DNA of 64,000 nucleotides, taken from positions 13,626 to 77,625 of the forward strand of contig JABSSL010000029.1 of the NCBI GenBank assembly GCA_013214355.1, given 5' to 3'. The notes below the pieces were generated by a model. The model ran no database searches, was not told where the DNA came from, and was given only the letters and a program-made list of their open reading frames with translations. Within the stretch, counting starts at the first letter, position 1. Each line of letters starts with the position of its first letter. Both the position numbers and the translations under genes were made by a program. The stretch comes from Saprospiraceae bacterium. GTDB lineage: Bacteria; Bacteroidota; Bacteroidia; Chitinophagales; Saprospiraceae. Shown here piece after piece: positions 12,209 through 33,919 of the stretch.

Positions 12209-12268
12209 GAATACCATGTGCAAATGTAGATAAGGGCATGGCTGTTTTATGGGTGGCTCCTCTGAGCG

Positions 12269-12436
12269 TCACGCCAAGCTCATGCGGATTGTGGGTGGAG
12301 AACACCCGACAATGGGCAGGGAGGCGCACGCCGGGCTGTTGATGTTTGCAGGCCGGGTTCTTCATGGACACTTGGGAAAGTCACGCCAGGCTCATGTGGA
12401 TTGTGGGTGGAGAACACCCGACAATGGGCAGGGAGG
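12269..12436. repeat. REP-like repeat family, locus C (2 units separated by about 58 bp)
   Basis: Units at 12269-12322 and 12381-12436: TCACGCCARGCTCATGYGGATTGTGGGTGGAGAACACCCGACAATGGGCAGGGA. Confidence 0.75.
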
Positions 12437-12463
12437 GGCGCGCCGGGCCTTTTAGGGAAAGCC

Positions 12464-17146: not shown

Positions 17147-17202
17147 TTTTCCGTTATTTTAGGAAATAATTTCTAATTTTAGCAAAGTTATTAATTCCGA
17201 GC

Positions 17203-17676
17203 ATGAGTACAAAAGTACAATCTTGTCATTGCAAAAAGCAAAAAGAGAAGGCAGGTTTAAATCGTAAAACAGCTACTTCTAGTCTTGGTTCAGCCTTGAT
17301 CGGAGTCCTGATTGTGCTTTTACCAAAATGTCACTTTTGTTTACTAGCTTATTCCAGCGCTATCACCTTATGTAGTGGTACTAAAATATACAATCATTCT
17401 CCTGCTTGGACGTCCTACATCTCCATCAGCCTTGCATTATTAACTCTCGCTTTAGTCCTAATCAATTACAAGGGACTTCGTACACTTTTCGCCGCTAGCT
17501 TAGTCATCATTGGGTGTCTATTGATTAGTTACAGTGAACTAAAGACCGGCGAAATAGCTTTTTATTATGGAGGGACCTTTGCTCTTTTATTTGGTGTTTG
17601 GGTAAACGGAAGCTTCTATCACTTTTTCCGTAAATTTACCGAGAAAAGGACCAAAATCACTCATACCAGTTTCTGA
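17203..17676 (+). CDS. Cys-rich 4-TM membrane protein (possible metal handling)
   Basis: N-terminal CHC and a membrane-embedded LPKCHFC motif. No family assigned. Confidence 0.5.
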   Translation: MSTKVQSCHCKKQKEKAGLNRKTATSSLGSALIGVLIVLLPKCHFCLLAYSSAITLCSGTKIYNHSPAWTSYISISLALLTLALVLINYKGLRTLFAASLVIIGCLLISYSELKTGEIAFYYGGTFALLFGVWVNGSFYHFFRKFTEKRTKITHTSF

Positions 17677-17699
17677 TAGAGTTAAACAAAGCGGGATCA

Positions 17700-17972
17700 A
17701 TGCAAACCATAAAATGTACTGGCGCCTTACGACGTTTTTTTCCTAATCTGAAAGATGAAGCAGTAAAGGGTTCTACGGTTGCAGAAGCCATTCAGCAATT
17801 TGAAAGCCATTATCCTGGCATCTCTGATTACCTCCTAGATGAACAAGGTGCGCTACGCAAACATGTCAATATATTTGTAGGAGGAGAACTTATCCAAGAT
17901 CGGGTTCATCTCCAGGATCCATTAAATGAAAGTAGCGAAATCCTTATCTTTCAAGCCCTTTCCGGCGGATAA
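17700..17972 (+). CDS. MoaD/ThiS-family ubiquitin-like sulfur-carrier protein
   Basis: 90 aa ending in ...ALSGG, the C-terminal Gly-Gly typical of MoaD/ThiS. Confidence 0.7.
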   Translation: MQTIKCTGALRRFFPNLKDEAVKGSTVAEAIQQFESHYPGISDYLLDEQGALRKHVNIFVGGELIQDRVHLQDPLNESSEILIFQALSGG

Positions 17973-18001
17973 ACTTTTATTATTTCGAATAACTTCAACG
18001 C

Positions 18002-19099
18002 ATGCCTTCAGCACAATTGCTACTTGTGGGGACAAGTAAGGGACTCATTGTTTTTGAAAAAAGAGAAGCCGCTTGGACCATTAAGGATGTCCACTTTGTT
18101 GGCATGCCGGTGGCCTTGATCTATGAAGATGAGCGAACGCAAACCTGGTGGGCTGGCATCGCGCATCGACACTGGGGGCAAAAGCTGCACTATAGCAAGG
18201 ATCAAGGGAAGTCGTGGCAAGCCGTTCCTACTCCCAAATACCCGAAAGACACTTTTGTCTATCCCAACCGGGCCGCCACGCTGAAGAAGATCTGGGTCAT
18301 GCAACATGCTGGGCCAGATAAACCTGGAGGCCTATGGCTGGGCACCGAACCCGGAGGACTCTTCTACAGTGATAACCATGGACAAAGTTTTGAGTTAGTT
18401 GAAGCACTGTGGAATCATCCGAGTAGGCAAGACCAGAACCAATGGTTCGGGGCGGGAAGAGATTTTCCCTTTATCCATAGCATTGTAGTTGATCCCAGAG
18501 ATAGCAAGCATGTCTATATAGCGGTTAGTTGTGCTGGGGTATTTGAGACCAAGGATGGTGGCGCTTCATGGGAGCCTAGAAATAAAGGCTTGATCGCCGC
18601 CTACTTGCCCAATCCAGCGGCCGAAGTCGGGCATGATCCTCACCGCATGTTGCTTTGCCCTGCCGAACCAGACGTCATCTGGCAGCAAAACCACTGCGGC
18701 ATCTTTCGTTCCACTGATGCCGGATTGTCTTGGGATAATGTCACAGATTCCAACGGCTTGGCCGATTATGGCTTTGCTTTGGCCGTTGATGAAGAAGATC
18801 CTAAGCGCGCCTGGGTCATTCCCGCCATAAGTGACGAGGTGAGGGTAGCTCAAGATCTAGCGCTCTGTGTCTGTGTCACCGAAGATGGTGGCCTGAACTG
18901 GCGGGCGCTCCGAGAAGGACTACCTCAAAACCACAGCTTTGATATTGTTTTTCGCCATTCTTTTTGCAATACAGGTAGGAGACTGGCCTTTGGCTCCACA
19001 ACTGGCAACCTTTTCCTATCTGAAAACAATGGTCACAGTTGGCAATGCCTTTCTCACAACTTACCAAGAATTGACAGTCTCATCTTCACACACTCCTAA
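18002..19099 (+). CDS. BNR/Asp-box repeat beta-propeller protein (sialidase-fold, non-secreted)
   Basis: Six SxDxGxxW/F boxes: SKDQGKSW, SDNHGQSF, TKDGGASW, STDAGLSW, TEDGGLNW, SENNGHSW. Confidence 0.75.
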   Translation: MPSAQLLLVGTSKGLIVFEKREAAWTIKDVHFVGMPVALIYEDERTQTWWAGIAHRHWGQKLHYSKDQGKSWQAVPTPKYPKDTFVYPNRAATLKKIWVMQHAGPDKPGGLWLGTEPGGLFYSDNHGQSFELVEALWNHPSRQDQNQWFGAGRDFPFIHSIVVDPRDSKHVYIAVSCAGVFETKDGGASWEPRNKGLIAAYLPNPAAEVGHDPHRMLLCPAEPDVIWQQNHCGIFRSTDAGLSWDNVTDSNGLADYGFALAVDEEDPKRAWVIPAISDEVRVAQDLALCVCVTEDGGLNWRALREGLPQNHSFDIVFRHSFCNTGRRLAFGSTTGNLFLSENNGHSWQCLSHNLPRIDSLIFTHS

Positions 19100-19300: not shown

Positions 19301-19322
19301 TTTTAGTAAATTTTTACTAAAA
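19301..19322. promoter_or_regulatory. Perfect 10-bp inverted repeat upstream of coxM (candidate operator)
   Basis: TTTTAGTAAA-tt-TTTACTAAAA, about 78 bp upstream of the coxM ATG. Confidence 0.35.
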
Positions 19323-19399: not shown

Positions 19400-20263
19400 A
19401 TGATACCTGCACCCTTTGAGTATGATGCACCAGCCACGCTGGATGAAGCTATCGCTCTTCTCGAGAAGCATGGTGATGAAGCCAAAATACTAGCGGGGGG
19501 TCACAGTCTCATTCCAATGATGAAGCTACGATTTGCTTCACCGGAGCATTTGATTGACATCAATAATATCCCGGGGCTTTCGTACATCAAGGAAGAAGAT
19601 GGCTACCTGAAGATAGGCGCCATGACCCGCGAATCAGAGCTAGAAGAAAGCGAAATCATCCGTAGCAAATATCCCATCTTTACGGATGCATCTAAGTTGA
19701 TTGCAGATCCTCAGGTCCGAAACATGGGTACTATTGGCGGAAACATTGCCCACGGTGATGCAGCCAATGACCATCCTGCCGTAATGCTTGCCTTGAAAGC
19801 CGAGGTAGTAGCCACCGGTCCAGGCGGCCAGCGTGTAATTCCCATCGACGAATTCTTCTACGGCTTTTACATGACCGCACTTCAACCCAACGAAATCTTA
19901 ACCGAAATTAGAATACCAAGTGTAGGAGCAGGTACGGGCAATGCCTATCACAAGTTAGAACGTAAAGTAGGTGATTACGCTACAGCCGGTGTTGCGGCAC
20001 AAATTGCGGTAGATGCTGATGGTATTTGCACCTATGCTGGAATTGGTCTTACCAATGTCAATGCCACTCCGCTCAGAGCGGCTAGATCCGAAGAAGCTTT
20101 AGTAGGTAAAAAACTTACTGAAGAGACTATTGCAGCTGCGGCACAAGCTGCTTCTGAGGATTGTAATCCTTCTACCGATTTACGAGGAAGTGAAGAATAC
20201 AAACGCTCTATGGTCCGCGTGCTTGTTAAGCGCATGATCAACAAGGCAACCGATCGAATTTAG
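19400..20263 (+). CDS. coxM: Aerobic CO dehydrogenase medium (FAD-binding) subunit
   Basis: 287 aa with an FAD_binding_5 pattern ([26 protein letters not shown]) and a CO_deh_flav_C tail. First gene of an M-S-L order. Confidence 0.9.
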
Positions 20264-20288
20264 GTCATATTTAAATTTCAATTTGATT

Positions 20289-20792
20289 ATGAAAAAAGAA
20301 ATAACTGTAACCATCAATGGAGAAGCTCATACAGTAGAAGTGGAGCCTCGCTTATTGTTGGTACACCTCATAAGAGAGCAGCTTAGCATGACCGGAACGC
20401 ATATCGGTTGTGATACTTCAAGTTGTGGAGCATGTACCATTTTAGTTGACGGGAAATCTATCAAATCCTGTACGATGTTGGCCATTCAAGCTGACGGAAA
20501 GTCAATTATCACAGTGGAAGGGCTAGCTACAGTAGAAGGGCTACATCCATTACAAGAAGGCTTTAAGGAAAACCACGGCTTGCACTGTGGCTTCTGCACT
20601 CCAGGCATGATGCTAAGAGCCGTAGAGCTATTGGAAAAGAATCCTAACCCTACCGAAGAGGAAATCCGTTGGGGCATCTCTGGAAATCTATGTCGCTGCA
20701 CAGGCTACAATAACATCGTGAAGGCCATCCAATATGCAGGTGCTAAGATTAGAGGGGAAGAGCTTCCTTCTACGGAGCCGGAATTCGTTTAG
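20289..20792 (+). CDS. coxS: Aerobic CO dehydrogenase small ([2Fe-2S]) subunit
   Basis: Two FeS motifs: [11 protein letters not shown] and CGFCTPGM...CRCTGY. Confidence 0.9.
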
Positions 20793-20815
20793 TTTAAATT
20801 GACAATTATCACATC

Positions 20816-23185
20816 ATGATAAAGTGTAAAACATCAAAGGCCATCGGAGGAATGGGTCACTCCATCAAGAGAAAGGAGGACGCTCGTTTTATCCAAGGCA
20901 AAGGCAATTATGTAGATGACATCAAATTGCCCGGCATGCTGCATATGGATATTGTTCGTAGCCCCTATGCTTATGCTAAAATCAAAAGCATCAATGCCGA
21001 GGAAGCGCTTAAGATTCCTGGCGTAATTGCGGTTGTGACAGGGAAAGATCTGGAAAAATACAATTTGCACTGGATGCCGACCCTAATGTCGGATACGCAA
21101 ATGGTATTGCCAACTGACACTGTGATGTACCAAGCTCAGGAAGTAGCGGCTGTTATTGCTACTGACCGCTATGCTGCACGAGATGGTAAAGAGGCTGTAA
21201 TGGTTGACTACGAGCCGATGAAGCCCGTCATTGATCCATTCAAGGCGCTGGATGAAGATGCCCCTGTCTTACGCACAGACAAGGAAGGAAAAACAGATAA
21301 TCACATCTGGAACTGGAGCGTGGGTGACAAGGAAGCTACAGATAAGCTGTTCGACTCCGCAGACGTAACCGTTAAGGAACAAATGCACATTCCTAGAATA
21401 CACGTTGCTTCCATCGAAACCTGTGGTTGTGTGGCTGACTACAATAAAGTAGAGAACCACTTGACCATGTACATGACTACTCAAGCACCTCACGCTATTC
21501 GTACCGTGATTGCATTAGTAGCTGGACATGTAGGCTTGACAGAAGAAAAAGTTCGGGTCATTTCTCCTGATATTGGAGGAGGATTCGGTGGTAAGGTACC
21601 TGTATATCCAGGTTACGTAATCGCCATTGCTGTTTCCTTCCTAGTTGGAAAGCCCGTCAAATGGGTAGAGGATAGAAGCGAAAACCTACAGGCCGATTCC
21701 TTCGCACGAGACTACCACATCACCGCCGAAATGGCCGCTACTAAAGAAGGTAAAATCCAAGGTATCCGATTTAAGCTCTTAGCAGACCATGGATATACCG
21801 ATGCAGCAGCCAATCCTTCTAAGTTTCCAACCGGTCTCTTCTCGATCTGTACAGGATCTTATGACTATGGTACAGCTTATCTTGAAGCTGATGCAGTATA
21901 CACGAACAAGCCTCCAGGAGGAGTAGCCTATCGTTGTTCTTTCCGGGTAACCGAAGCCGTACACGCCATTGAAAGGATTACCGATCGTCTAGCCCTAGAG
22001 ATTGGTAAAGACCCCGCCCAATTGCGTTTTGAAAATTTCATCAAGAAAGAAGACTTCCCTTGGAAATCTCCAACAGGCTGGGAATACGATAGTGGTGATT
22101 ACCATGCTGGATTACAGAAGGCAATGGATGCTATCGACTATGAGGGTCTTCGTAAAGAGCAGGCTGAAAAGAGAGCTCGCGGAGAAATGATGGGTATCGG
22201 TATATCTACTTTTACGGAGATTGTAGGTGCAGGTCCATCTAAAGATTTCGATATCCTGGGTATTAAGATGTTCGATAGTGCTGAGATTCGTGTACACCCA
22301 ACGGGCAAAGCCATTGCTAGATTTGGTACCAAATCACAAGGACAAGGTCACGAGACTACTTATGCACAGATCATCGCGGAAGAATTAGGTATTCCAGCGG
22401 AGCATATTCAAATTGAAGAAGGCGATACAGATACCGCTCCTTATGGACTGGGTACCTACGCCAGTAGAAGTACACCAACCGCAGGTGCAGCCGCAGCCGT
22501 GGCCGCGCGAAAGTTGAGAGACAAAGCCCGTAAAATCGCCGCTTACCTTCTGGAAGTAAGTGAAGAGGACTTGGAATGGGAACCTGGTAAATTCTTTGTA
22601 AAAGGAGCACCAGAAAAAGCAAAAACTATCCAAGAAATTGTTTTTGCTGCCTACACCAACCATCCACAAGGTATGGAAGCTGGTTTTGAGGCTACTCACT
22701 ACTATGATCCACCAAACTTAACCTTCCCATCAGGTGCCTATATCTGTGTCGTGGACATTGATAAGGAAACTTGCGAAATCAAAGTTCGACGTTTCGTAGC
22801 GATTGATGACTGCGGGAACATCATTAATCCAATGATCGTACAGGGTCAGGTACATGGGGGGCTTACCCAAGGCATTGCACCAGCCATGTATGAAGAGTTA
22901 ATCTACGACGAAGATGGCAATATTCTAAATGGTACCCTAATGGACTACCTAGTACCAACCGCGGTAGAATCTCCAAGTTGGGAAACGGGTCACACCATCA
23001 CTCCTTCTCCTCACCACCCAATCGGTGCAAAAGGTGTCGGAGAATCTCCAACGGTAGGGGCTCCACCAGCTATCGCGAACGCGATTGTCGATGCATTGAG
23101 CCCTTATGGCATTACACACATGGATATTCCGATCACTCCTTATAAGGTGTGGAAAGTACTGAAAGAGAAAGGAGTTGTAGAATAA
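20816..23185 (+). CDS. coxL: Aerobic CO dehydrogenase large (Mo-Cu) subunit, form I
   Basis: 789 aa with GMGHSIKRKEDARFIQGKGNYVDD at the N-terminus. The form-I active-site loop VAYRCSFR is at 21926-21946. Confidence 0.9.
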   Translation: MIKCKTSKAIGGMGHSIKRKEDARFIQGKGNYVDDIKLPGMLHMDIVRSPYAYAKIKSINAEEALKIPGVIAVVTGKDLEKYNLHWMPTLMSDTQMVLPTDTVMYQAQEVAAVIATDRYAARDGKEAVMVDYEPMKPVIDPFKALDEDAPVLRTDKEGKTDNHIWNWSVGDKEATDKLFDSADVTVKEQMHIPRIHVASIETCGCVADYNKVENHLTMYMTTQAPHAIRTVIALVAGHVGLTEEKVRVISPDIGGGFGGKVPVYPGYVIAIAVSFLVGKPVKWVEDRSENLQADSFARDYHITAEMAATKEGKIQGIRFKLLADHGYTDAAANPSKFPTGLFSICTGSYDYGTAYLEADAVYTNKPPGGVAYRCSFRVTEAVHAIERITDRLALEIGKDPAQLRFENFIKKEDFPWKSPTGWEYDSGDYHAGLQKAMDAIDYEGLRKEQAEKRARGEMMGIGISTFTEIVGAGPSKDFDILGIKMFDSAEIRVHPTGKAIARFGTKSQGQGHETTYAQIIAEELGIPAEHIQIEEGDTDTAPYGLGTYASRSTPTAGAAAAVAARKLRDKARKIAAYLLEVSEEDLEWEPGKFFVKGAPEKAKTIQEIVFAAYTNHPQGMEAGFEATHYYDPPNLTFPSGAYICVVDIDKETCEIKVRRFVAIDDCGNIINPMIVQGQVHGGLTQGIAPAMYEELIYDEDGNILNGTLMDYLVPTAVESPSWETGHTITPSPHHPIGAKGVGESPTVGAPPAIANAIVDALSPYGITHMDIPITPYKVWKVLKEKGVVE

Positions 23186-23240: not shown

Positions 23241-23828
23241 ATGAGAACGACAATAAAAAAAGATTTTTCCGTAGAAGAACCGATTGAAAAGGTTTGGGAT
23301 TATCTAGCTAACCCTACTAAGATTGTCAGCTGTGTTCCTGGTGCTGCCATCACAGAAGAAATCGACGATCGCAATTTCAAAGGGGAAGTCACCATGAAAT
23401 TTGGGCCAGTAAAGGCTAAATATAGTGGAGAAATCGCCATCCAAGAATTAGACCTGGAAGCCAAGAAAATGGTCATGAAAGGCCGTGGCTTGGATTCCAA
23501 AGGAAAAGGTAGTGCCGACATGATTATGAATGGCAACCTTACGCCTACGGAGAAAGGAACTGATGTTCAATTCTCAATGGAAGTATCCATTATCGGAATG
23601 CTAGCTCAATTTGGATCTCGCTTAATCAATGATGTATCCGATCAGTTGCTGAATCAATTTGTCACCAATTTCAAGGCTAAATTGGCGGGTGCCGAAGAAG
23701 TTGACAATAGCATTAACGCCGGTGCTATGGTTGGTACAATTGTGAAAAACAAAATTGGCGGCTTGTTTAGTGGCAAGAAGGATAAGGCACAGGAAGAACA
23801 AAAGCCAAAGGAAGAAGCTAGCAAATGA
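23241..23828 (+). CDS. coxG: CoxG-like SRPBCC protein
   Basis: SRPBCC/CoxG-like N-terminal domain with a Lys/Glu-rich tail. Its position directly after coxL supports the call. Confidence 0.75.
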   Translation: MRTTIKKDFSVEEPIEKVWDYLANPTKIVSCVPGAAITEEIDDRNFKGEVTMKFGPVKAKYSGEIAIQELDLEAKKMVMKGRGLDSKGKGSADMIMNGNLTPTEKGTDVQFSMEVSIIGMLAQFGSRLINDVSDQLLNQFVTNFKAKLAGAEEVDNSINAGAMVGTIVKNKIGGLFSGKKDKAQEEQKPKEEASK

Positions 23829-24700
23829 CAAATACGAGTTCAATTCAACAAGAATTTGATCAGTTTGGCTATGTACTGGATGAGGAATTGGCAACGGTCC
23901 TATTCCTCACCTTACATTTACAGAAACCATTATTACTGGAAGGGCCTCCTGGTGTTGGTAAGACGGAAGTAGCCAACGTCCTGGCCCAAGCTTTAGATAC
24001 GCAACTGATCCGCCTTCAATGTTACGAAGGCCTGGATGTAAATGCAGCTGTATACGAGTGGAACTACCAGAAGCAGCTGTTGTCCATAAAGCTTCAAGAA
24101 GGATCGCAAAAATCTGAGGCAGAAAAGGAGTCTCACATTTTTGGAGAGGATTTTTTGCTTCAACGTCCTTTGCTCCGGGCCATTACGGCTACCGAGAAGT
24201 CCCCGGTTTTACTTATTGACGAAATAGATCGAGCTGACGAAGAGTTCGAAGCCTTTTTACTAGAACTCCTGTCCGCTTTCCAAATTAGTATACCGGAAAT
24301 GGGGACGATCAAAGCCACACATAAGCCTTTGGTCATCCTCACTTCCAACCGAACACGGGAGTTAAGCGACGCCCTAAAACGACGCTGCCTATATCACTGG
24401 GTGTCTTACCCGGATCTTCCACGAGAACTACGGATTGTGCAGAAACATCTGCCTCAATTAGACAAACAGCTATCCGAAAATCTAGTGCGGATTGTGCAGG
24501 TACTGAGAGAACGAAAGTTAAACAAAGTACCTGGCATTGCCGAGACCTTGGATTGGGTCAACGCATTGGTGGCCTTACAAGCTACTAATCCCAATGCGGA
24601 TGATTTAGCGCGTAGTTTAGGTTGTCTGCTGAAGTCAGCAGATGATATCGAAATGGTTAAAGCGAGTGGGCTAGAAGAGTTACTCGCCGTATCTGAATAA
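23825..24700 (+). CDS. coxD: MoxR-type AAA+ ATPase CoxD
   Basis: Walker A LLEGPPGVGKT and Walker B VLLIDEIDRA. A 4-nt overlap joins it to coxG. Confidence 0.85.
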   Translation: MTNTSSIQQEFDQFGYVLDEELATVLFLTLHLQKPLLLEGPPGVGKTEVANVLAQALDTQLIRLQCYEGLDVNAAVYEWNYQKQLLSIKLQEGSQKSEAEKESHIFGEDFLLQRPLLRAITATEKSPVLLIDEIDRADEEFEAFLLELLSAFQISIPEMGTIKATHKPLVILTSNRTRELSDALKRRCLYHWVSYPDLPRELRIVQKHLPQLDKQLSENLVRIVQVLRERKLNKVPGIAETLDWVNALVALQATNPNADDLARSLGCLLKSADDIEMVKASGLEELLAVSE

Positions 24701-24707
24701 AGCAGCC

Positions 24708-25853
24708 ATGGCCGACTATCCACATTTCACCCAATTCGAAAGTCTCCCAGAAGCCGTAACAGCATTCTGCCAGTTGGCCAGAGAAAACGGGTTAAATGTG
24801 GGGCTACAAGAGAATATGGATGCGCTTCGTATGGCTCAGCTAGAGCCCTTGAATGATCGCATTGCTTTCGGGTATGCCTTAAAGGCCATCTGCTGCTGTA
24901 GCGAAGAAGAAAGGGCACAGTTTGATACGCTGTACGAATGGTTTTGGGGATGGGAAAAAGGAGCCTTGAAAGCCAAAACGGTTTTCAAGAACCAATCCAA
25001 TATCCAAAAGAAAACACCTGCATCTCTAGTTATGATGGGGGTGGGTCAGCAGCAAGCTGGCCAGGAAGAAGAAGCTAGAAATGTTTCGGGTGCCAATAGA
25101 GTCGAAAGACTTCGCAAGACTGACTTCTCGAAGATCGAGGAAATGGATAGCGAACTGCTAGAGGAAATTGCTTTGAAGTTATGGAAGCAAATGAGTCTGC
25201 GGTTAAAACGCAAAATGAAGGCTTCTACCACCAAAGGACCGCTTAACCTGCGACAGATTATCCGATACAGCATCAGCACAGGAGGAGACCCTATTCGCTT
25301 ATTTCGGAAGAACAAAAAACCACGCAAGCAGCGGCTAATTGTGCTTTTGGATGTGAGTGGGTCAATGGATAAATACAGCTTTTTCCTTTTGCGATTCATC
25401 TGTGCCTTACGAGTTCATTTCGAAAAGGTAGAGGCATTTCTATTCAGCACCAATTTGATACGGATTACCGAATATCTTTCCGCCAGCAATCTAGCTACAA
25501 CCCTAAACATACTGTCAGCAAAGGCGGATAATTGGTCAAGCGGCACAAAAATTGGAGCATGCTTTCGGGATTTCAATGAGGAGCACGCAAAACGAATGCT
25601 AAATGGCCAATCCACCGTCATCATATTAAGTGATGGTCTAGATACCGGAGAACCGGAAGTACTTTATGAAGAGGTGCAAAAAATACGCAGGCGCACCAAA
25701 CGCCTGATTTGGCTGAATCCCCTAAAAGGGATGAGAGGATACGAACCTACCCAGAGAGGTATGAAGGCGGCCTTACCAGCCGTGGACATTTTTAAATCTG
25801 CCCACAACCTGGACAGCATTTTAGAATTGGAAAAATTCCTATTGGATGTTTAA
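24708..25853 (+). CDS. coxE: VWA-domain protein CoxE
   Basis: C-terminal VWA domain with the MIDAS motif LLDVSGSMD. Its position after coxD supports the call. Confidence 0.8.
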   Translation: MADYPHFTQFESLPEAVTAFCQLARENGLNVGLQENMDALRMAQLEPLNDRIAFGYALKAICCCSEEERAQFDTLYEWFWGWEKGALKAKTVFKNQSNIQKKTPASLVMMGVGQQQAGQEEEARNVSGANRVERLRKTDFSKIEEMDSELLEEIALKLWKQMSLRLKRKMKASTTKGPLNLRQIIRYSISTGGDPIRLFRKNKKPRKQRLIVLLDVSGSMDKYSFFLLRFICALRVHFEKVEAFLFSTNLIRITEYLSASNLATTLNILSAKADNWSSGTKIGACFRDFNEEHAKRMLNGQSTVIILSDGLDTGEPEVLYEEVQKIRRRTKRLIWLNPLKGMRGYEPTQRGMKAALPAVDIFKSAHNLDSILELEKFLLDV

Positions 25854-26835
25854 TGAATTTCTGACAGCAACGGAGTCCCTTTATAAAGAAAAAGAGCCAT
25901 TCGCTTGGGCTTTTATCATCAACCGAACGATCCCCTCCTCGGGTAAGCCGGGAGATAAGGCCATCATCAAGCGGGATGGAACTTTGATCGGCTGGATTGG
26001 CGGAGGGTGCACCCGGGGTATTGTGCTCAAAGAGGCCCAAGCGGCCATCAATGATGGGAAACCACGCTTGGTGAAAATCGCCCCTGATCAAACAGAAGAG
26101 CAGAAAGCCGGTGTTCAAACTTATACCATGACCTGTCAAAGCGGAGGAGCTGTGGAAGTATACATAGAACCAGTTTTACCACGTCCCCATCTAGTAATTA
26201 TGGGGAAATCACATGTAGCCATGGCCTTGGCCAAATTGGGAAAAGCTATGGATTATCAAGTATCTGTGGTCGCCTCCCATGCAGATAAGGTGAGCTTCCC
26301 TACCGCAGACCAGATCATGGATAGCCAGGAGTTACCAGCCGAACATATCCAGCCCAACTCCTGTATTATCGTTTCCACCCAAGGGGAAGGAGATGAAATT
26401 GCTTTAGAACAAGCTATTAAGTCAAAACCCATATACCTTGCTTTCGTAGCCAGTATGCGTAAAGCGAACGCCATTTTTACCGAGTTGCGACAAAGAGGAA
26501 TAACTTTTGACCAACTAAAGGGTATCAAAACCCCTGCAGGCTTGGATATCAAAGCCAAATTACCAGAAGAAGTGGCGGTTAGTATTCTGGCAGAAATCAT
26601 ACAATTAATTCGGGGAGAGGAGATTCAAATCGAGGTGGGAGAGGCTCAGCCGCCTGCACAATCTGCTCAATTAAATGAGGATCTATTCATCAATCCTGTA
26701 TGTGGGATACCTGTACAAAAAAGTACAGCTAAACATATCTTGGAATACCAGGGAAAAAAGGTTTATTTTTGTTGCGATGGCTGTAAGGTGAGTTTTGAAA
26801 AAGAACCCGAAAAATACGCTATGAAATTGGAATAG
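25846..26835 (+). CDS. coxF: CoxF-like XdhC-family protein fused to a C-terminal YHS/TRASH-type metal-binding domain
   Basis: XdhC_CoxI N-terminus (GKPGDKAII..GWIGGGCTRG), Rossmann domain (LVIMGKSHVAMAL), and a YHS domain NPVCGIPV...YQGKKVYFCCDGCKVSFEKEPEKY at 26692-26832. Confidence 0.8.
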   Translation: MFNEFLTATESLYKEKEPFAWAFIINRTIPSSGKPGDKAIIKRDGTLIGWIGGGCTRGIVLKEAQAAINDGKPRLVKIAPDQTEEQKAGVQTYTMTCQSGGAVEVYIEPVLPRPHLVIMGKSHVAMALAKLGKAMDYQVSVVASHADKVSFPTADQIMDSQELPAEHIQPNSCIIVSTQGEGDEIALEQAIKSKPIYLAFVASMRKANAIFTELRQRGITFDQLKGIKTPAGLDIKAKLPEEVAVSILAEIIQLIRGEEIQIEVGEAQPPAQSAQLNEDLFINPVCGIPVQKSTAKHILEYQGKKVYFCCDGCKVSFEKEPEKYAMKLE

Positions 26836-26840: not shown

Positions 26841-27473
26841 ATGAAAAATACCAAGCAAAAGATATTAGACGCCGCTCTTTCCTTATTTAATCGTGATGGG
26901 TATGTCAATGTAAGACTACAACATATAGCGGATAAAGCAGGAATGAGCATTGGAAACCAAGGGTATCATTTCAAGCACAAAGAGGAAATGTTACTAGCCA
27001 TTTATCAAGGATTGAGCGCAGAGCAGCGAAAACTACTAACAGACACCAGCCTTAGTCCAATCTTCGCTAATTTTGATTTTTTCATATCATCCCTTTTTGA
27101 ACTTCAACAAAAATTTGCGTTTTTCTATCTAGATATGCTCGAATTGACTCGGGCAAATGAGCAATTAAAATCCCAACAACAAGAACTAATTCAGTGGCAA
27201 CAAACTCAGTTGACCCTATTGCTAGAAATGCATCAAGCTAGAGGTGTCCTTAACTGGGAAGATTCAGACGTTAGTTTGGAAGAAACAGCACAGCATGTGT
27301 GGCGCATAATGGATTTCTGGCTCATTATGCAAAAGGTAGAGGGAAAGAATACAGCTGACTTTCAGGCCTACCGACGGAGTGTGTGGGGAGTAGTCAAACC
27401 CTTCTTCACGGGGCAAGGCGTCATTGAGTTTGATCAACTAAATGCTTTACAAGAACCCATTAAACTAAGCTAA
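26841..27473 (+). CDS. TetR-family transcriptional regulator
   Basis: N-terminal TetR HTH (KQKILDAALSLFNRDGYVNVRLQHIADKAGMSIGNQGYHFKHKEEM). Confidence 0.85.
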   Translation: MKNTKQKILDAALSLFNRDGYVNVRLQHIADKAGMSIGNQGYHFKHKEEMLLAIYQGLSAEQRKLLTDTSLSPIFANFDFFISSLFELQQKFAFFYLDMLELTRANEQLKSQQQELIQWQQTQLTLLLEMHQARGVLNWEDSDVSLEETAQHVWRIMDFWLIMQKVEGKNTADFQAYRRSVWGVVKPFFTGQGVIEFDQLNALQEPIKLS

Positions 27474-27477
27474 GTCC

Positions 27478-28956
27478 ATGACAGGCGTAAGTGCAACGAC
27501 GATTGCAGGCCAAGTAGAAAAAGAGTTGGAAGCCGATGTGTACATCAATCGCAACGGGCAAGTCATGCGTGCTACCCTAAGATCTGGTTTGTACCAGGGG
27601 GATAAGGGAATTTTGATGGAACAACGGCCGGAAGCTGCCTGTAGACTTACTGCGCATTTATTTGGTTTTTGTGGAGGATCTCATCAGCAAGCGGCCGCCA
27701 AGGCCTTGGAGAATGCATGGAACATTGAAGGAATGCCTGCGAATGCCATTTTGCTACGCCAGATCACGCAGGCCGCCGAGATCATGCAAAATATACCGCG
27801 TTGGTTCTATTCCAACTTTGCCCATGATCTCACCAGTACAAAATATAGCCAAACCCTACTCTACCCTGCTATAGTTGAACGTTTTGCCTTTATCAAAGGC
27901 TCCTCCTTTCGCAAAGGACTCATGGCAAGTGCCTATCCCATCAGCTTGTATTCTACCATCGCGGGCCAATGGCCCCAAGCAGATTTTGCTACTCCTGGTG
28001 GAGTTTCGACAAATTTCCAGGTACAAAACCTCAGCCAAGCCTTTTCTATATTAGAAAAATATCGCTCAGAGTGGCTGGAGCCAGTTTGGTTGGGATGCAG
28101 TGTAGAGCGTTATCTGCAAATTCAAACTTGGCAGGAACTCATGGAATGGCTGGAGGAAAAACCTGCTCATCGAAATAGTGATCTTGGCTTATTTGTCAGA
28201 GGAGCGCTGGGCTACAATTGGGATAAAATAGGAGCTGGTATTGGTAAATTTCTTTCCTATGGCCTCTATGGAGAGTCAATGCTATCACCCGCCGGAGCTG
28301 CGGAAGCTCAATCGGTTCCAGGCGGTTTCTACAATGGTCAGACTATTGAACAGGTAGATGCCATGCTGATCAGGGCGGAGATGGAAAAGGGAAATGCCCA
28401 TTTCCAATACCAAAATCAAATGGTTGAAGTAGGTCCCTTGGCACGTCAAGTACTCGCTTGTCAAGGTCCTGATCGGACACAGGCACCAACGGGCTTAATT
28501 TGGGATATATTACAAGAAAAAGGGCCAAGTGTGTTTCTACGCGTCTTAGCGCGTATGCACGAATCGGCTTTCTTTTTCCAAAAAATCCAACATTGGCTTT
28601 CTAAACTTGATCTTTCCGAAAATTTCAATGTAGATTTCAGTAGGTACAAACAAAGCATGATGGGCTTGGGACTCACTGAAGCCCCCCGAGGTGCGCTCGC
28701 ACATTTAACGACTACGAATAGCCAACAGATAGAAGGGTATCAAATCTTAGCCCCTACACTAGTTAATATCAACAATGGTACAAAACCCAAGGAGCAATCA
28801 GCCTTAGCTGTGGCTCTGAACGGACTTATTATAGAAAATCTAGAGAACCCGGTAGAGGTAGCTACCATAGCTCGATCCCTAGATACCTGTCTCAATTGTA
28901 AAGTGAATTTGTATAAGCACCGATCCGAAAAACAGATTGCCACCATAGCCCTGTAG
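27478..28956 (+). CDS. [NiFe]-hydrogenase large-subunit homologue with degenerate active-site ligands (orphan, no small subunit)
   Basis: Canonical GLTEAPRGALAH and a C-terminal IARSLDTCLNC (compare DPCxxCxxH). The N-terminal RxCGxCxxxH motif reads GFCGGSHQQA, and RIEGH reads TIAGQ. Confidence 0.75.
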   Translation: MTGVSATTIAGQVEKELEADVYINRNGQVMRATLRSGLYQGDKGILMEQRPEAACRLTAHLFGFCGGSHQQAAAKALENAWNIEGMPANAILLRQITQAAEIMQNIPRWFYSNFAHDLTSTKYSQTLLYPAIVERFAFIKGSSFRKGLMASAYPISLYSTIAGQWPQADFATPGGVSTNFQVQNLSQAFSILEKYRSEWLEPVWLGCSVERYLQIQTWQELMEWLEEKPAHRNSDLGLFVRGALGYNWDKIGAGIGKFLSYGLYGESMLSPAGAAEAQSVPGGFYNGQTIEQVDAMLIRAEMEKGNAHFQYQNQMVEVGPLARQVLACQGPDRTQAPTGLIWDILQEKGPSVFLRVLARMHESAFFFQKIQHWLSKLDLSENFNVDFSRYKQSMMGLGLTEAPRGALAHLTTTNSQQIEGYQILAPTLVNINNGTKPKEQSALAVALNGLIIENLENPVEVATIARSLDTCLNCKVNLYKHRSEKQIATIAL

Positions 28957-28999
28957 TCTTAAAAGAGCCCTTTATCCCCTAAAATGCCTCTTTTAAGAC
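28956..28999 (+). other. Perfect 12-bp stem hairpin immediately after the hydrogenase-like gene
   Basis: gtcttaaaagag (28956-28967) pairs with ctcttttaagac (28988-28999), leaving a 20-nt loop. No T-tract follows. Confidence 0.4.
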
Positions 29000-29134
29000 A
29001 ACTTACAACCGTAACTGATCCTGGAATTTTAAAATATTCTATAGTTTAAGAACAATTTTCCATCATAAGTTTTATAGTAGAGGCATTTGCCAAAACATAT
29101 AATACCTTTGAGGGTGGATAAACAAAACTGCCTT

Positions 29135-29392
29135 ATGTGTCTAGCCATTCCTGGAAAAATCAAATCCATCACTAGTACGGATGGGATGATACGCACTGCC
29201 AAAGTCGTATTTGGCAATATCATCAAAGAAGCTTTTTTAGATATGGTTCCCAATGCTAAAGAGGGCGATTATGTACTTGTGCATGCCGGAGTAGCCATTA
29301 ATGTAGTCAATGAGTTAGAAGCAAAGCGCACCTTTTCTTATTTGAAACGCTATGGGGGACTGGAAGACCTCATCCCCGAAAAAGCTGGTTAA
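29135..29392 (+). CDS. hypC: HypC/HybG/HupF-family hydrogenase maturation chaperone
   Basis: The N-terminus MCLAIPGKI carries the essential Cys2. The protein is 85 aa, and the ATG at 29135 gives the canonical N-terminus. Confidence 0.85.
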   Translation: MCLAIPGKIKSITSTDGMIRTAKVVFGNIIKEAFLDMVPNAKEGDYVLVHAGVAINVVNELEAKRTFSYLKRYGGLEDLIPEKAG

Positions 29393-29403
29393 TCTAGCCG
29401 TGC

Positions 29404-30495
29404 ATGAAATTTTTGCATGAATATCGAGACCCAGAGCTCGTACAAGCCTATCTTAGTGAAATCAACGATCTAATCAGTCAAGATTGGACTCTAATGGAAT
29501 TTTGTGGAGGCCAGACACACAGTTTGGTCAAGAATGGTCTCTTGGATATTCTCCCAGAAAAGATCCATATGGTACATGGTCCTGGATGCCCTGTCTGTGT
29601 CACGCCACTAGGGATGATTGATCAGGCAATTGAGCTAGCCATGACCAAGAATGTCATACTTTGTTCCTATGGTGATATGCTTCGTGTACCGGGTTCCGAA
29701 AAAAGCTTGTTGGAAGCTAGAGGCGCAGGAGGAGACGTACGTTTTCTGTACTCTCCCATGGAAGCCGTCAAGATCGCACAACAAAACCCGGATAAAGAAG
29801 TAATATTCTTCGCCGTTGGTTTTGAAACTACAGCTCCCGCCAACGCACTGTCTGTGCTTCACGCCCAACAATACGGCTTACGCAATTATTCAATACTTTC
29901 TTCCCATATCTTGGTCCCTCCTGCTATGGAAGCTGTTCTCGATGACGAAAAAAGTCAAATCCAAGGATTTATTGGTGCAGGTAATGTCTGCTCGGTAATG
30001 GGATTAGAGGCGTATGAAGATATCGTGCTACGGAGGGAGATTCCCTTAGTAGTGACCGGGTTTGAACCCGTTGATCTCTTACAGGGCATATTAATGCTCG
30101 TGCAACAGCTCGAAGCTGGAGAGGCGAAGCTCGAAAACCAATATGCAAGAGTTGTCCCTTGGGATGGCAATCCGATGGCCAAACAGGTGATCCAAAAAGT
30201 CTTTGAGATCACAGATCGCGAATGGCGAGGGATTGGTGTTTTACCCAATAGCGGCTGGCGTGTCAGACCTGAATACAAGGATTTTGATGCGACGAGAAAA
30301 TTTGGATTAGGAGCTCCCGCTGCCAAGGAAAATGGTGAGTGCATTGCAGGGGAGATACTTACCGGTCAAAAAAAACCAAAAGACTGTCCACATTTCGGTA
30401 AGAGATGTAACCCAGTCACTCCGCTTGGCGCTCCTATGGTGTCCTCAGAAGGTGCCTGCGCTGCCTATTATCACTTCACCGAAGCCTTTTCATAG
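29404..30495 (+). CDS. hypD: Hydrogenase maturation factor HypD
   Basis: 363 aa with FCGGQTH, GPGCPVCV and a C-terminal Cys cluster, all typical of HypD. Confidence 0.9.
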   Translation: MKFLHEYRDPELVQAYLSEINDLISQDWTLMEFCGGQTHSLVKNGLLDILPEKIHMVHGPGCPVCVTPLGMIDQAIELAMTKNVILCSYGDMLRVPGSEKSLLEARGAGGDVRFLYSPMEAVKIAQQNPDKEVIFFAVGFETTAPANALSVLHAQQYGLRNYSILSSHILVPPAMEAVLDDEKSQIQGFIGAGNVCSVMGLEAYEDIVLRREIPLVVTGFEPVDLLQGILMLVQQLEAGEAKLENQYARVVPWDGNPMAKQVIQKVFEITDREWRGIGVLPNSGWRVRPEYKDFDATRKFGLGAPAAKENGECIAGEILTGQKKPKDCPHFGKRCNPVTPLGAPMVSSEGACAAYYHFTEAFS

Positions 30496-30763
30496 TCCAC
30501 TCTTTCAAGAACTGAATGTCGTAAAGACTTCTTTAGAGGATTGGATGGTATCGTTTAGACTTTCCATTATCCGGCATTTATTATATTTAGGCTCCCCATT
30601 AACCTCTCCCCCACTCCAAATGAATAAACCCCTTACTGGGGTTGACCTTGAGCTAATTGAGACTTACATGCCTTTTGGTTCTTTTCATCGACAAAGCATA
30701 ACTAGAACCGCTTAATTAATGATTCAGTAAAACCTATTTCATCCGACCGCTAATCAGGTGAAC

Positions 30764-33700
30764 ATGACACTCAAACTACCAACACTTGCAAGTCTGCTAC
30801 TTGCAGCTCTCCTCACTTATCCAATGGGTACCCAAGCTCAGCAGGTACCTACAACCTCTTTGCCATTACAAATACAAAGCCTACAAGATTCTACGATTAG
30901 GCTTGCCAAAGCCAAAGATTGGGAAACTTATATAGTCGTCCAAGCAAAGATCTTATCTCTTTATAAGCGTTCCGGTGATCTTCTAGAAGGCATAGAATTC
31001 GGAGAAAACCTATTGCAGAAAATTACCCGTAGAGCAGGTCGATTCAAATCTTCCAGTTGGTCAGTTTATCAAGCCTTAGCCTCCCTATATGCCACCTCCG
31101 GAAAGACGGATCGGGCCATTGCGCTCCATTTGGAGCAGCTTGACTTATTGTCATCCTATCCGAAATCTGTAGATCCCTGGCGTCTGATCGCAACCTATAA
31201 CCAATTGGGTGCGCAGCACCTAGCACAAAGGGAAACCGGCACAGCATTCAGCTATCTCCAACAGGCAAAATCACACCTCCAGCTACATTTGAAAGATACT
31301 GGATTTGTCCCCTCCACTACTCGTGCTATAGAAGTAATTACACAGACCTATGCGCTTCTAAGTGAATACCATGTACACACTTATGACCTACAAGAAGCAT
31401 TGCCCTACGCCAAGCTAGCGCTACAAACTGCCAAACAGCATTATGCTACAAATGCTTTTGCTTTACATCCACATTACAACAGAATCGGGAAGCTATACTT
31501 TGCGCTAGAAGAGTATGAAAAAAGCCAAGAATATCACCGGAAGGCCCTCTACGTTTTAAAAAAAGGTAAGTTGCAAGAAACAGTAGCAGACAGCACCCAG
31601 GTAGCCTTGGCGTACTACTATTCAGATCTGGCCGATGCCTTTGGCGGTAAGGAGGCTATTAACTACTATGAGAAAAGTTTGAACCTCCTGGAAAAACCCG
31701 AAGAGCATCTGTTGCTACGCATCAAAAATCTAAGAAAAATCGCAGAACATTACAACTGGCAGGAGGATTTTGATCGGTCTTGGTCATATATTGAACAAGC
31801 TGACAGCTTATGGTTAGCAAATGTGGAACAGTATCAGCAGGACATAGATTTTCAATTCTCAAGGGCCGGTATATATCGCAGTAGAGGACACTACTGGAAG
31901 AGGTTAGGTTCTTTCGAAAAATCGCTTCATTTCTACAAAAAGTATGTGGAAGTTTGGGAAAGGAATGGATCTAGCCCAGTCAATACAGAGAGCATTGGGA
32001 TATTGATGGAAATAGCAGAGATTTATAACTGGAAGGTAACGGAAAAGGAAATGTATGCTGACTCCGCCGTATACTACACGCGAAAAGCCTTGGTGAAAGC
32101 CACCAAGAACTTCAACTCCTATGATCTCAAAGAAATCCCTCGGGTAGAGGACTTGCACACGATCACCTACATGTACGCCATACTGAAGCAATTGGCGCGA
32201 TTTGGCCAATGGAAAGCTACTCACTACGGAGACATTGAGGACGAAAGGGAGGCATTGCACAATGCATTAGCCATAATGGATCTAGCAGATCAATTTCACA
32301 CCCGAAGTCTACAACAAATAAATAACCTGCGGGCAGGGCAAGCTGCTAGCTTGATCAAAAGATCTCTTATGATCTATCATGGAAGCATCGTTTTTGCTAC
32401 TAGTCTCTACGAGATTGAACCCTCCGCAGAACTGATCGAAAAGTGCTTTTACTATAGTCAACGCATGAAAGCCCAAAAACTTTGGTTGGAACAACTGGAG
32501 GAAGAGGCTCATCAACTTCTTGACCTGCCGGACTCCATACAAATCCAGGAAAAAGCGATGGCAGTTAATATTCAAGATTACAAACGGCAGATCTTGGACG
32601 CACAACGCAATGGAGACACTGTGCTGGTTGAGGAAATTAGGAACAACCAACTTTTTGAGACGTATCGGACCTCTGAAGCTTTACAGCTACAACTGGAAGA
32701 AGACAATCCAAGCTTCCTCCGAAATAAATATGACTTTGTCCCCACAACCATTGCGGAGTTACAAGAACAACTGGCACCAGAAGAGTTATTGATAGAGTAT
32801 ATGTATTCGGGTTGGAAACAACTAGCCTTTGTGGTCCAAAAGGATATGCCGGCACAGTTATCCATTCTGACTCAGGAGGAAAGCGTTTGCAATTCAGTCT
32901 ACCAACACATTGAACTCTTCCACGACCTGCTGCAGCGATCACCGATGCTGCGGAAAAGCAGTCGAGCAGATTTCATCCAGTGGAGCAATCTACTTTATCA
33001 ACATTTCCTAAGACCTATTGAAAAATCTCTAGTTGGAAAGAAACGCTTGATCGTGGTCGGGTATGATCGAATCAATTATATTCCTTTCGAAACCTTACTC
33101 GCCTCTGCGGAAATGAAGCCCTTTACCGATCTAGAGTTCTTAATTAAACGCTACGAAGTTTCTTATCACTACTCCGCCAATCTATTTGTGCAAAGCCGAA
33201 AAAAACGGCGGCCTGTGCAGGAAGGAGTCTACGTATTTGCTCCGATTTATGATGATCAGGCGATTCTAGCCGCTACCCCAGTTAATACAAAAAACACTTC
33301 TAAACACACAGCCTTACGCGCTTTCGATGAAGATGGTGTGTTCACTCCTTTACCAGAATCAGAAAGGGAGGCTAATGATATATTCAAACTCTTTACTAAG
33401 GGGAAAGATCCTATTCAAAATAAGTTAGCACTGCGGGAAGTAGCGACAGAGCACAATCTAAAAGCTAATTTAGAAGCCCCGTATCGATTCATTCATATTG
33501 CCGGGCATAGCTTTGCGAATCTAAAAAATCCAGAGTTTTCTGGTATTGCATGCTTTACAAAAGACTCCTCAATTGAGGAGGACGGTATTCTATACATGGG
33601 AGAAATCTACGCACTTGACACCTATGCTGACTTGGTCACTTTAAGTAGCTGTGAAAGTGGTTTGGGTAAACTTGAAAGATCTGATGGGCTAATTGGTCTC

Positions 33701-33919
33701 AACCGTGCATTCGTTTACACAGGCATTCCAAATGTAGTATTCTCCCTGTGGAAAGTCTATGACCGAGTAAGTTCCAATCTCATGGTTGATTTTTATGGAG
33801 CCGTCCTAGCAGGCGAGAATTATGCTACGAGTTTACGCCGAGCAAAATTGAAGCTACTGGAATCTGAAGCGACAGCCTCTCCGCATTATTGGAGTCCATT
33901 TCTACTGATTGGCCGGTAA
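30764..33919 (+). CDS. Exported TPR-repeat CHAT-domain (caspase-fold) protein, paralogue 1
   Basis: Signal peptide, about 700 aa of TPR-like helical repeats, and a C-terminal CHAT domain with His/Cys dyad motifs HIAGHS and LSSCESG. Ends HYWSPFLLIGR. Confidence 0.85.
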   Translation: MTLKLPTLASLLLAALLTYPMGTQAQQVPTTSLPLQIQSLQDSTIRLAKAKDWETYIVVQAKILSLYKRSGDLLEGIEFGENLLQKITRRAGRFKSSSWSVYQALASLYATSGKTDRAIALHLEQLDLLSSYPKSVDPWRLIATYNQLGAQHLAQRETGTAFSYLQQAKSHLQLHLKDTGFVPSTTRAIEVITQTYALLSEYHVHTYDLQEALPYAKLALQTAKQHYATNAFALHPHYNRIGKLYFALEEYEKSQEYHRKALYVLKKGKLQETVADSTQVALAYYYSDLADAFGGKEAINYYEKSLNLLEKPEEHLLLRIKNLRKIAEHYNWQEDFDRSWSYIEQADSLWLANVEQYQQDIDFQFSRAGIYRSRGHYWKRLGSFEKSLHFYKKYVEVWERNGSSPVNTESIGILMEIAEIYNWKVTEKEMYADSAVYYTRKALVKATKNFNSYDLKEIPRVEDLHTITYMYAILKQLARFGQWKATHYGDIEDEREALHNALAIMDLADQFHTRSLQQINNLRAGQAASLIKRSLMIYHGSIVFATSLYEIEPSAELIEKCFYYSQRMKAQKLWLEQLEEEAHQLLDLPDSIQIQEKAMAVNIQDYKRQILDAQRNGDTVLVEEIRNNQLFETYRTSEALQLQLEEDNPSFLRNKYDFVPTTIAELQEQLAPEELLIEYMYSGWKQLAFVVQKDMPAQLSILTQEESVCNSVYQHIELFHDLLQRSPMLRKSSRADFIQWSNLLYQHFLRPIEKSLVGKKRLIVVGYDRINYIPFETLLASAEMKPFTDLEFLIKRYEVSYHYSANLFVQSRKKRRPVQEGVYVFAPIYDDQAILAATPVNTKNTSKHTALRAFDEDGVFTPLPESEREANDIFKLFTKGKDPIQNKLALREVATEHNLKANLEAPYRFIHIAGHSFANLKNPEFSGIACFTKDSSIEEDGILYMGEIYALDTYADLVTLSSCESGLGKLERSDGLIGLNRAFVYTGIPNVVFSLWKVYDRVSSNLMVDFYGAVLAGENYATSLRRAKLKLLESEATASPHYWSPFLLIGR

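Follow-up and report, generated by a model that had tools for sequence, protein, structure and literature searches.

Introduction

During the maturation of [NiFe]-hydrogenases, the Fe(CN)2CO group is in place before nickel is inserted into the large subunit, and cleavage of the C-terminal extension follows nickel (PMC12134894). HoxV of Cupriavidus necator and HupK of Rhizobium leguminosarum, two large-subunit homologues with neither nickel nor activity, carry Fe(CN)2CO and are served by HypC-type chaperones and HypD; in aerobic Proteobacteria they have the part of scaffolds or "stores" (PMC12134894; PMC3534401). Fe(CN)2CO is known only within the Ni-Fe cofactor, of which it forms one half, and as a cargo that HypCD and HoxV/HupK carry transiently. 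The present analysis concerns a stretch of 64,000 nt from a Saprospiraceae bacterium (contig JABSSL010000029.1; hereafter the window), in which a large-subunit-like (LSU-like) protein of 492 aa, of group 2a origin and predicted to be nickel-free, is encoded at 27478..28956 on the forward strand, between a TetR-family regulator and the maturation genes hypC and hypD, and behind the cox genes of a form I Mo-Cu CO dehydrogenase (CODH).

Nickel-free proteins of this fold are a kind already known from HoxV and HupK, and a cox-linked arrangement is without description in the literature searched, which included a 2026 survey of CODH gene contexts and held no mention of hyp or LSU-like genes in cox clusters. 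An earlier note on this sequence, which knew of no described function for the arrangement, agrees with that literature on the arrangement itself and overlooked the precedent in kind set by HoxV/HupK (PMC12134894). The sensing of CO and the regulation of form I CODH in aerobic CO oxidisers are largely unknown, and a single locus offers here a candidate repressor, a putative operator and a candidate sensory partner. Our tentative reading is that the LSU-like protein is a group 2a paralogue that would have given up the nickel half of the metal site and kept the iron half, that it may bear Fe(CN)2CO and that it may act together with TetR on CO oxidation.

The metal site of the LSU-like protein

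The open reading frame (ORF) at 27478..28956, taken by the earlier note for a homologue of the [NiFe]-hydrogenase large subunit, is one by both homology and fold. Its product matches PF00374 with 118 bits (E 5e-34), and its closest solved relative is HucL, the large subunit of the group 2a hydrogenase Huc of M. smegmatis (307 bits, 34% identity), other hydrogenases scoring ~100 bits. The AlphaFold 2 (AF2) model has a predicted local distance difference test (pLDDT) of 88.5 and a predicted template modelling score (pTM) of 0.91, and superimposes on chain A of 7UTD with a TM-score of 0.83.

The metal site was compared in alignments of ~60 family members, ~60 canonical relatives and HucL. The first cysteine motif, L1 (27655..27684, forward strand), reads AHLFGFCGGSH against the canonical PRICGICGGSH; numbered as H60-L-F62-G-F-C65-G-G-S-H69, it has Phe for the first cysteine and retains the bridging cysteine and the histidine. 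The second motif, L2 (28882..28908, forward strand; D469-T-C471-L-N-C474-K-V-N477), reads DTCLNCKVN against DSCLVCTVH, with both cysteines retained and Asn for the histidine of the cleavage site. The proton-relay motif is GQVEKELEA against GRVEGDLDV, its glutamate being retained (Q12-V-E14-K-E), and the arginine motif is TEAPRGAL against TEAARGAL. At the position of the L1 arginine the window protein has His, and most family members have Arg. L2 is followed by a conserved C-terminal tail of 15 aa (28909-28953), which is predicted to be uncleavable and is modelled as a beta-hairpin (pLDDT ~90-95 in the AF2 model).

These alignments revise the description of the site in the earlier note. Its count of three cysteines out of four is right, and the lost one is the first of L1, the terminal nickel ligand, instead of the second, for which it had read Ser. 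The L1 histidine that it reported as lost is kept as His69, and the L1 arginine, reported lost with it, is indeed His in this protein, though Arg in most of the family. The motif TIAGQ that it had matched to the RIEGH-type sequence gives way to Q12-V-E14-K-E, with the glutamate kept. The substitution of Asn for the cleavage-site histidine after the second CxxC was correctly seen, and the stretches GLTEAPRGALAH and DTCLNCKVN are present where it had placed them.

In the enzymes of D. gigas and D. vulgaris, each CxxC motif bridges nickel and iron through its second cysteine and binds nickel only through its first. The arginine of EAxRG, together with the Ser/Thr after a conserved proline, makes hydrogen bonds to the cyanides. 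Across the LSU-like family, the nickel-only cysteine positions decay and the iron-bridging positions are spared. The first L1 cysteine is Phe or Tyr in all ~60 members and the third cysteine is lost in P0007, P0010, P0121, P0122 and P0108; the second L1 cysteine (C65) is present in all clusters except P0108, and the last L2 cysteine (C474) is invariant. Glu14, His69, the arginine of EAPRG, the Pro-Thr of an APT motif and the aspartate of DxC are likewise invariant in the alignment termed A2, and the position of the cleavage-site histidine is variable. Against a catalytic large subunit, with four cysteines in two CxxC motifs, scores above the NCBIfam equivalog cutoffs, a cleavage-site histidine with its protease and HypA/HypB, and an adjacent Fe-S small subunit, the family falls short throughout: the first L1 cysteine is absent in ~60 of ~60 members, the best NCBIfam score of the window protein is 154 bits against 600 (NF033181), and neither the cleavage apparatus with HypA/HypB nor the adjacent small subunit is found.

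Origin, distribution and selection

Neighbour-joining recovers the family as monophyletic in 100/100 bootstraps and places it with a 2a-like clade in 96/100; it is not nested among the canonical sequences of Bacteroidota, a placement in which long-branch attraction is possible. Searched with a profile, 1.84 billion representative proteins yielded only ~7 clusters (50% identity) with the Phe/Tyr signature. Among 185,579 GTDB species genomes there are five carriers, all of them Saprospiraceae, Lewinellaceae or Bacteroidota metagenome-assembled genomes, with no isolate among them. Public annotation labels the family proteins as nickel-dependent hydrogenase large subunits, and metagenomic surveys would therefore miscount them as H2-oxidation capacity.

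Compared with a relative whose CoxL is 99.4% identical, the LSU-like gene has a ratio of nonsynonymous to synonymous substitution rates (dN/dS) of 0.05, which denotes purifying selection, and its dN of 0.088 is the highest in the cluster (coxL, 0.004; hypD, 0.031). The protein is fast-evolving yet clearly constrained. Across sequences only ~40% identical, the ORFs of family members (485-499 aa) remain intact and share invariant residues specific to the family.

A separate set of degenerate 2a-like large subunits, comprising P0125 (L176 3591-5072, L177 2226-3707), P0126 and P0127, keeps L1 intact and has lost the last L2 cysteine; P0125 may represent a scaffold resembling HupK that arose outside the Proteobacteria.

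Conserved linkage to the cox genes

The LSU-like gene belongs to a mobile unit of four genes on the forward strand, which opens with the TetR-family regulator (26841..27473; PF00440 and PF13972) and ends with hypC (29135..29392; PF01455, N-terminal Met-Cys in the start MCLAIPG) and hypD (29404..30495; PF01924, TIGR00075 477 bits against a cutoff of 193). Gaps of 4 nt separate TetR from the LSU-like gene, 178 nt the latter from hypC, and 11 nt hypC from hypD. Ahead of this unit, on the same strand, lie the structural genes coxM, coxS and coxL (19400..23185) and the CODH accessory genes coxG, coxD (AAA+), coxE (VWA) and a gene of XdhC/CoxI type whose product ends in a YHS domain (23241..26835). 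CoxL scores 1250 bits with TIGR02416 (cutoff 991) and carries VAYRCSFR at residue 370, placing it in form I, and coxM and coxS are confirmed as its partners, as befits a form I Mo-Cu CODH. The earlier note had listed the same co-directional genes, with the same three gaps and with hypC and hypD recognised from MCLAIPG and GPGCPVC; only its "coxF" has to be renamed, as the XdhC/CoxI gene with the YHS domain.

The family loci examined span 37-86% protein identity to the window protein, the lowest value belonging to P0121 on L089. The order seen in the window, cox...xdhC/YHS-TetR-LSU-like-HypC-HypD, recurs in L001, L002/L003, L004, L005, L007, L009, L010, L011 and L089, and in L006 and L093 the unit TetR-LSU-like-HypC-HypD is placed upstream of coxMSL instead. 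The accessory order coxG-coxD-coxE-xdhC/YHS is the same in L001-L005, L007, L011 and L093. Linkage to cox genes is found in 12/12 loci with enough flanking sequence, representing ~10 divergent lineages and including the rearranged ones; L012, L013, L090 and L094 are short contigs and uninformative. Every family locus that extends far enough upstream includes a TetR gene, and at least 16 further HypD matches lie on contigs bearing family members. In a control set of 80 HypF loci from metagenomes, neither cox genes nor a Phe/Tyr-type large subunit occurred (0/80), every large subunit had CxxC, and a small subunit was detectable on the same locus in nearly all cases (exceptions, L100 and L145). 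The association with cox genes and TetR on which the earlier note had drawn in a single locus is therefore shared by its relatives.

Canonical hydrogenase clusters of Saprospiraceae have the order TetR(-x-TetR)-SSU(-SSU)-LSU-HycI-...-HypA-HypB-HypF-HypC-HypD-HypE, where SSU denotes the small subunit. Identity to the canonical cluster of F. nigricans is 44% for TetR, 68% for HypC and 69% for HypD, and only 38% for the LSU-like protein. Since TetR, HypC and HypD are closer to that cluster than the LSU-like protein is, the module appears to be a reduced, re-purposed hydrogenase cluster. No hydrogenase structural genes were found in any family locus.

The Hyp complement

Searches of the 64-kb window by tblastn, with queries from two canonical Saprospiraceae clusters, found no small subunit, HycI protease, HypA, HypB, HypE or HypF, and tblastn across 15 family loci (263 kb), with two Saprospiraceae small subunits among the queries, found no HypA, HypB, protease or small subunit. 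In one lineage (L093, L094 and L013) the order is HypF-HypE(PRIC tail)-TetR-LSU-like-HypC-HypD, L093 running on into coxMSL-coxG-coxD-coxE-xdhC and L094 and L013 ending soon past HypD. HypCDEF in this lineage comprises all that the synthesis and insertion of Fe(CN)2CO require, without the nickel steps. The absence of a small subunit, protease and hypA/B/E/F that the earlier note had remarked on is accordingly true of the 64 kb and does not extend to the family, one lineage of which has HypF-HypE directly upstream.

HypC has the N-terminal Met-Cys and the domain of its family and is 68% identical to a canonical HypC; HypD, well above its TIGR00075 cutoff, shares 65-72% identity with canonical HypDs, and all its motifs are intact (CGGxxH, GPGCPVC, GFETT, CX14CX6CX16C and D91). 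By a constant offset from C41/C69/C72, D91 is the counterpart of D98 in E. coli HypD, which docks the PRIC tail of HypE (PMC12130793). With all motifs kept, the HypE-docking D91 included, HypD is therefore expected to work with HypE and HypF encoded elsewhere.

TetR and an operator-like palindrome

An 18-bp operator-like palindrome, TTAGAAAWTATWTTCTAA, has two sites in the window, giving four strand matches where chance predicts 0.6. One, TTAGTAAATTTTTACTAA (19303..19320), ends 80 nt before the ATG of coxM; the second, TTAGGAAATAATTTCTAA (17159..17176), matches TTAGAAAWTATWTTCTAA with 1-2 mismatches and lies between a divergent xdhC-like gene on the reverse strand and the genes for a 157-aa protein, a ThiS-like protein and a BNR protein on the forward strand. 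An equivalent palindrome stands upstream of coxM in L001, L002, L004, L005, L006, L009, L011 and L093, which is every family locus covering that region, and in loci with the module ahead of cox it occurs 5' of TetR as well as between hypD and coxM.

The same palindrome is found in canonical hydrogenase clusters of Bacteroidota, where it marks the promoter of the small-subunit gene, of hypB or of TetR. Of the 80 control loci, 7/7 with a TetR homologue have it and 2/73 without, over a background of 9 matches in 1.23 Mb of other hydrogenase loci. Because it accompanies TetR homologues across loci, the palindrome is probably the operator of this PF13972-type TetR subfamily, which would govern an undescribed hydrogenase/CO regulon. 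Given this predicted operator, the cox operon of the Saprospiraceae carriers is probably under a hydrogenase-type repressor that travels with a nickel-less large subunit. Comparison of TetR with solved structures returned matches only to uncharacterised TetRs, with no clue to a ligand.

Sites in hydrogenase loci lie at 8867 and 17224 of L008, and also in L096, L099, L101, L102 and L128-L130, all of group 2a and with a PF13972-type TetR. Canonical Bacteroidota clusters with two small-subunit paralogues (L008 7654-9956, L096 1204-3403, L129 from 1254) have the order TetR-SSU1-[palindrome]-SSU2-LSU; SSU1 would thus be co-transcribed with TetR ahead of the operator, which parallels the pairing of TetR with the LSU-like gene.

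Other features of the locus

Within the gap upstream of hypC, a stretch of 150 nt (28985..29134, forward strand) is conserved well beyond synonymous sites in close relatives, with ~97-100% identity to L001 and L009 while dS in the flanking genes is 0.4-2. It has no Rfam match and RNA folding returned no significant fold, and it might serve as an internal promoter or as a leader. The element appears to be lineage-specific, because the gaps shrink to as little as 31 nt in more distant loci. In L002/L003, one lineage, a toxin-antitoxin-like UPF0175/DUF3368 pair (11753-12510) is inserted between the LSU-like gene and hypC, and the gene caller has fused DUF3368 to HypC.

The XdhC/CoxI-family gene of the accessory set (25846-26835) keeps its C-terminal YHS domain, a putative copper-binding module, in all family loci examined. 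Ahead of coxM, on the forward strand (17203-19099), are encoded the 157-aa protein, which has no Pfam match, the ThiS/MoaD-like protein and the BNR/Ycf48-like protein; the ThiS and BNR genes are kept in this place in L001, L004 and L005. The second XdhC-like gene (16112-17146, reverse strand) diverges from the palindrome-bearing spacer, and just 5' of the cox region an integrase-core (rve_3) ORF overlapping a helix-turn-helix ORF (14779-15997, reverse strand) resembles an insertion sequence or its remnant. Downstream, two large TPR-CHAT proteins are encoded on the forward strand at 30758-33919 and 43299-46535, the first starting 263 nt past hypD, a position that is not kept in more distant family loci.

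Discussion

The earlier note had argued for a repurposed role outside H2 cycling, and this is also the best reading of the present data; among the roles that it listed, the carrier of an Fe-carbonyl species comes near to what the evidence favours. In the reading put forward here, which we prefer and hold tentatively, HypC and HypD of the module, with HypE and HypF (adjacent in one lineage and presumably encoded elsewhere in the genome that the window comes from), would build Fe(CN)2(CO) and insert it into the LSU-like protein, where C65 and C474, once bridging cysteines, would hold it. Nickel would not be inserted, the C-terminal tail would escape proteolysis and a small subunit with Fe-S clusters would not be bound, so that the protein would stay precursor-like and redox-silent, comparable to HoxV/HupK. 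Since the gene travels with TetR, whose probable operator lies before coxM, we infer that the iron protein may be the partner that brings the signal to TetR for the cox operon. The most plausible input would be the binding of CO at the iron site vacated by the missing nickel; alternatively, the LSU-like protein might be completed only if CO is present to supply the carbonyl ligand. Metal content, interaction with TetR and CO as the signal are all predictions from sequence; the ligand pattern and a gene set limited to HypCDEF agree with the binding of Fe(CN)2CO without nickel.

In its most specific form, the proposal describes a new kind of gas sensor, in which a nickel-free Fe(CN)2(CO) centre, built by dedicated HypCDEF and either binding CO or completed by it, would relieve TetR repression of the cox operon. 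We regard this as unlikely, and its consequences as considerable: if true, no CO sensor before it would have been both non-haem and O2-compatible, and Fe(CN)2CO without nickel would have its first end-point (non-scaffold) use in biology. More generally, a family that kept Fe(CN)2CO without nickel would, if confirmed, mean that this organometallic group has a use in nature by itself. Such standalone use is supported by the strong selection on the family, by its own HypC/D (and, in one lineage, HypE/F) and by its location outside hydrogenase clusters.

Several observations pull against the preferred reading. The cofactor has been deduced from sequence and the assignment of the palindrome to TetR from their co-occurrence, and HypE and HypF are absent from the 64-kb window. 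P0121 and P0122, which lie outside alignment A2, have Lys for the cyanide-binding arginine and Asn for the threonine, and the P0108 cluster (22 member sequences) is without the L1 bridging cysteine, yet hypC still follows its gene. The same pair of TetR and operator occurs in ordinary hydrogenase clusters without an LSU-like paralogue; TetR therefore has no obvious need of another protein and may have a small molecule as its ligand. Lastly, the nearest degenerate sister, P0125, adjoins HypC, HypA and a group 1 hydrogenase with small subunit, large subunit and cytochrome b, a setting that fits a scaffold better than a sensor.

A scaffold or store of the HoxV/HupK type is the main rival reading. 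The LSU-like protein would then hold Fe(CN)2CO transiently, protected from O2, and pass it via HypC to a genuine hydrogenase, Huc-type or other, encoded elsewhere in the genome, its location beside cox reflecting a TetR regulon shared by CO and H2. HoxV and HupK do precisely this and show an F-x-x-C form of L1; the sister lineage P0125 sits beside hydrogenase genes; TetR and its palindrome are common to canonical Bacteroidota hydrogenase clusters; and HypC and HypD have not diverged from canonical ones at an accelerated pace. The genomic distribution speaks for a different role, with the LSU-like gene in no hydrogenase cluster, linked to cox in 12/12 informative loci and missing from the canonical Saprospiraceae clusters L008 and L091. 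So does the protein itself, which retains the full-length fold, the proton-relay glutamate and the conserved tail, where HoxV and HupK are reduced to ~300-370 aa. As weak evidence in the same direction, no canonical group 2a large subunit among the best 120 matches lies on the contigs of 1.87 Mb or 2.64 Mb that bear family members. On balance, a scaffold role seems to us doubtful. The canonical Phaeodactylibacter large subunit P0055 and the family member P0015 come from different assemblies.

The position of the LSU-like gene at the tail of coxG-coxD-coxE-xdhC/YHS in most lineages admits a further explanation, in which the protein, with HypCD, handles Cu, sulfide, CO or cyanide for the building or repair of the [CuSMoO2] centre and serves as a maturation or protection factor of Mo-Cu CODH. 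Maturation of this enzyme needs dedicated sulfuration and copper-insertion steps, and the three retained thiolates would suit such a task. A chemical link between Hyp proteins and Mo-Cu CODH is not known, however, and well-studied carboxydotrophs mature their CODH without Hyp; in L006 and L093 the unit moves with TetR and not with the cox accessory genes, and what the protein has kept is the cradle of Fe(CN)2CO rather than the residues of a new site. We consider this role improbable.

The retention of Glu14, Arg404, His69 and three cysteines could also be taken as the sign of a working H2-activating enzyme, with a three-cysteine nickel site or a mononuclear iron site and another redox partner, such as CoxS/CoxM, and isolated large subunits of some hydrogenases do show weak H2 activation. 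It is very hard to reconcile with the lack of nickel-insertion genes, protease and Fe-S subunit in every family locus, with the decay of precisely the nickel-only cysteine positions, and with a bulky Phe or Tyr at a nickel-ligand position in all members, and we give it little credence. Least credible of all is a functionless remnant of a group 2a hydrogenase decaying next to cox, suggested by a module that resembles a canonical cluster minus small subunit, protease, HypA, HypB and HypF/E and by the highest dN of the cluster, and already contradicted by a dN/dS of 0.05, on which the pseudogene reading was rejected, by intact ORFs of 485-499 aa with invariant residues at ~40% identity, and by a synteny that survives rearrangement.

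Comparison with known systems

The LSU-like protein shares with group 2a large subunits (Huc, PDB 7UTD; the cyanobacterial HupL type) the proton-relay glutamate, the L1 histidine, the EAxRG arginine, the PT motif, the DxC aspartate and a C-terminal extension, and the canonical group 2a clusters of Bacteroidota have in common with the cox-linked module a TetR of like kind, similar HypC and HypD and a palindrome of identical type. It differs in having Phe/Tyr for the first L1 cysteine, no cleavage-site histidine and an internal deletion of ~40 aa relative to canonical group 2a, and in lacking an adjacent small subunit, protease and HypA/B, its neighbours being cox genes instead of hydrogenase genes.

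With HoxV/HupK the likeness is one of kind. A HoxV-like ORF on plasmid pHCG3 of O. carboxidovorans (L095:11624-12547, reverse strand) reads PLIFNLC at L1 where the window protein reads HLFGFC (alignment A4), both having Phe for the first L1 cysteine and keeping the second. A comparison of the family with HoxV/HupK by hhalign aligned only 84 columns, at a probability of 95%, which places the family outside HoxV/HupK by sequence; with so remote a similarity, the resemblance at L1 is convergent and the origin an independent one from group 2a. Descent from HoxV/HupK was rejected, the LSU-like protein being far closer to group 2a. HoxV and HupK, of ~300-370 aa, are encoded between hupF/hoxL and hypC within hydrogenase operons, whereas the LSU-like protein has its full length of 492 aa, still bears the second CxxC and the C-terminal tail, and is always found in cox clusters with TetR.

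The regulatory hydrogenases of group 2b (HoxBC/HupUV) offer a likeness in their signalling use, their need for Hyp machinery and the adjacency of a regulator. These sensors have four cysteines and nickel, a small subunit, a histidine kinase and no C-terminal extension, and the LSU-like protein departs from them on every count, having lost one cysteine, kept the tail, no small subunit, and TetR in place of a kinase; an H2 sensor of the HoxBC type was rejected on these grounds. NuoD of complex I, Mbx/Mbs and Ehr set a precedent for the large-subunit fold losing its Ni-Fe ligands and gaining another function. These group 4 descendants are membrane-bound, multi-subunit and Hyp-independent, in contrast to the LSU-like protein, a soluble group 2a orphan that keeps HypC/D (and E/F).

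The haem-containing CO regulators CooA and RcoM would perform the same task as the LSU-like protein if the proposal of a CO sensor is right, and the latter has neither a haem domain nor homology to them. Should that proposal hold, both the use of Fe(CN)2CO on two cysteines as a sensing site and its output through TetR would be new.

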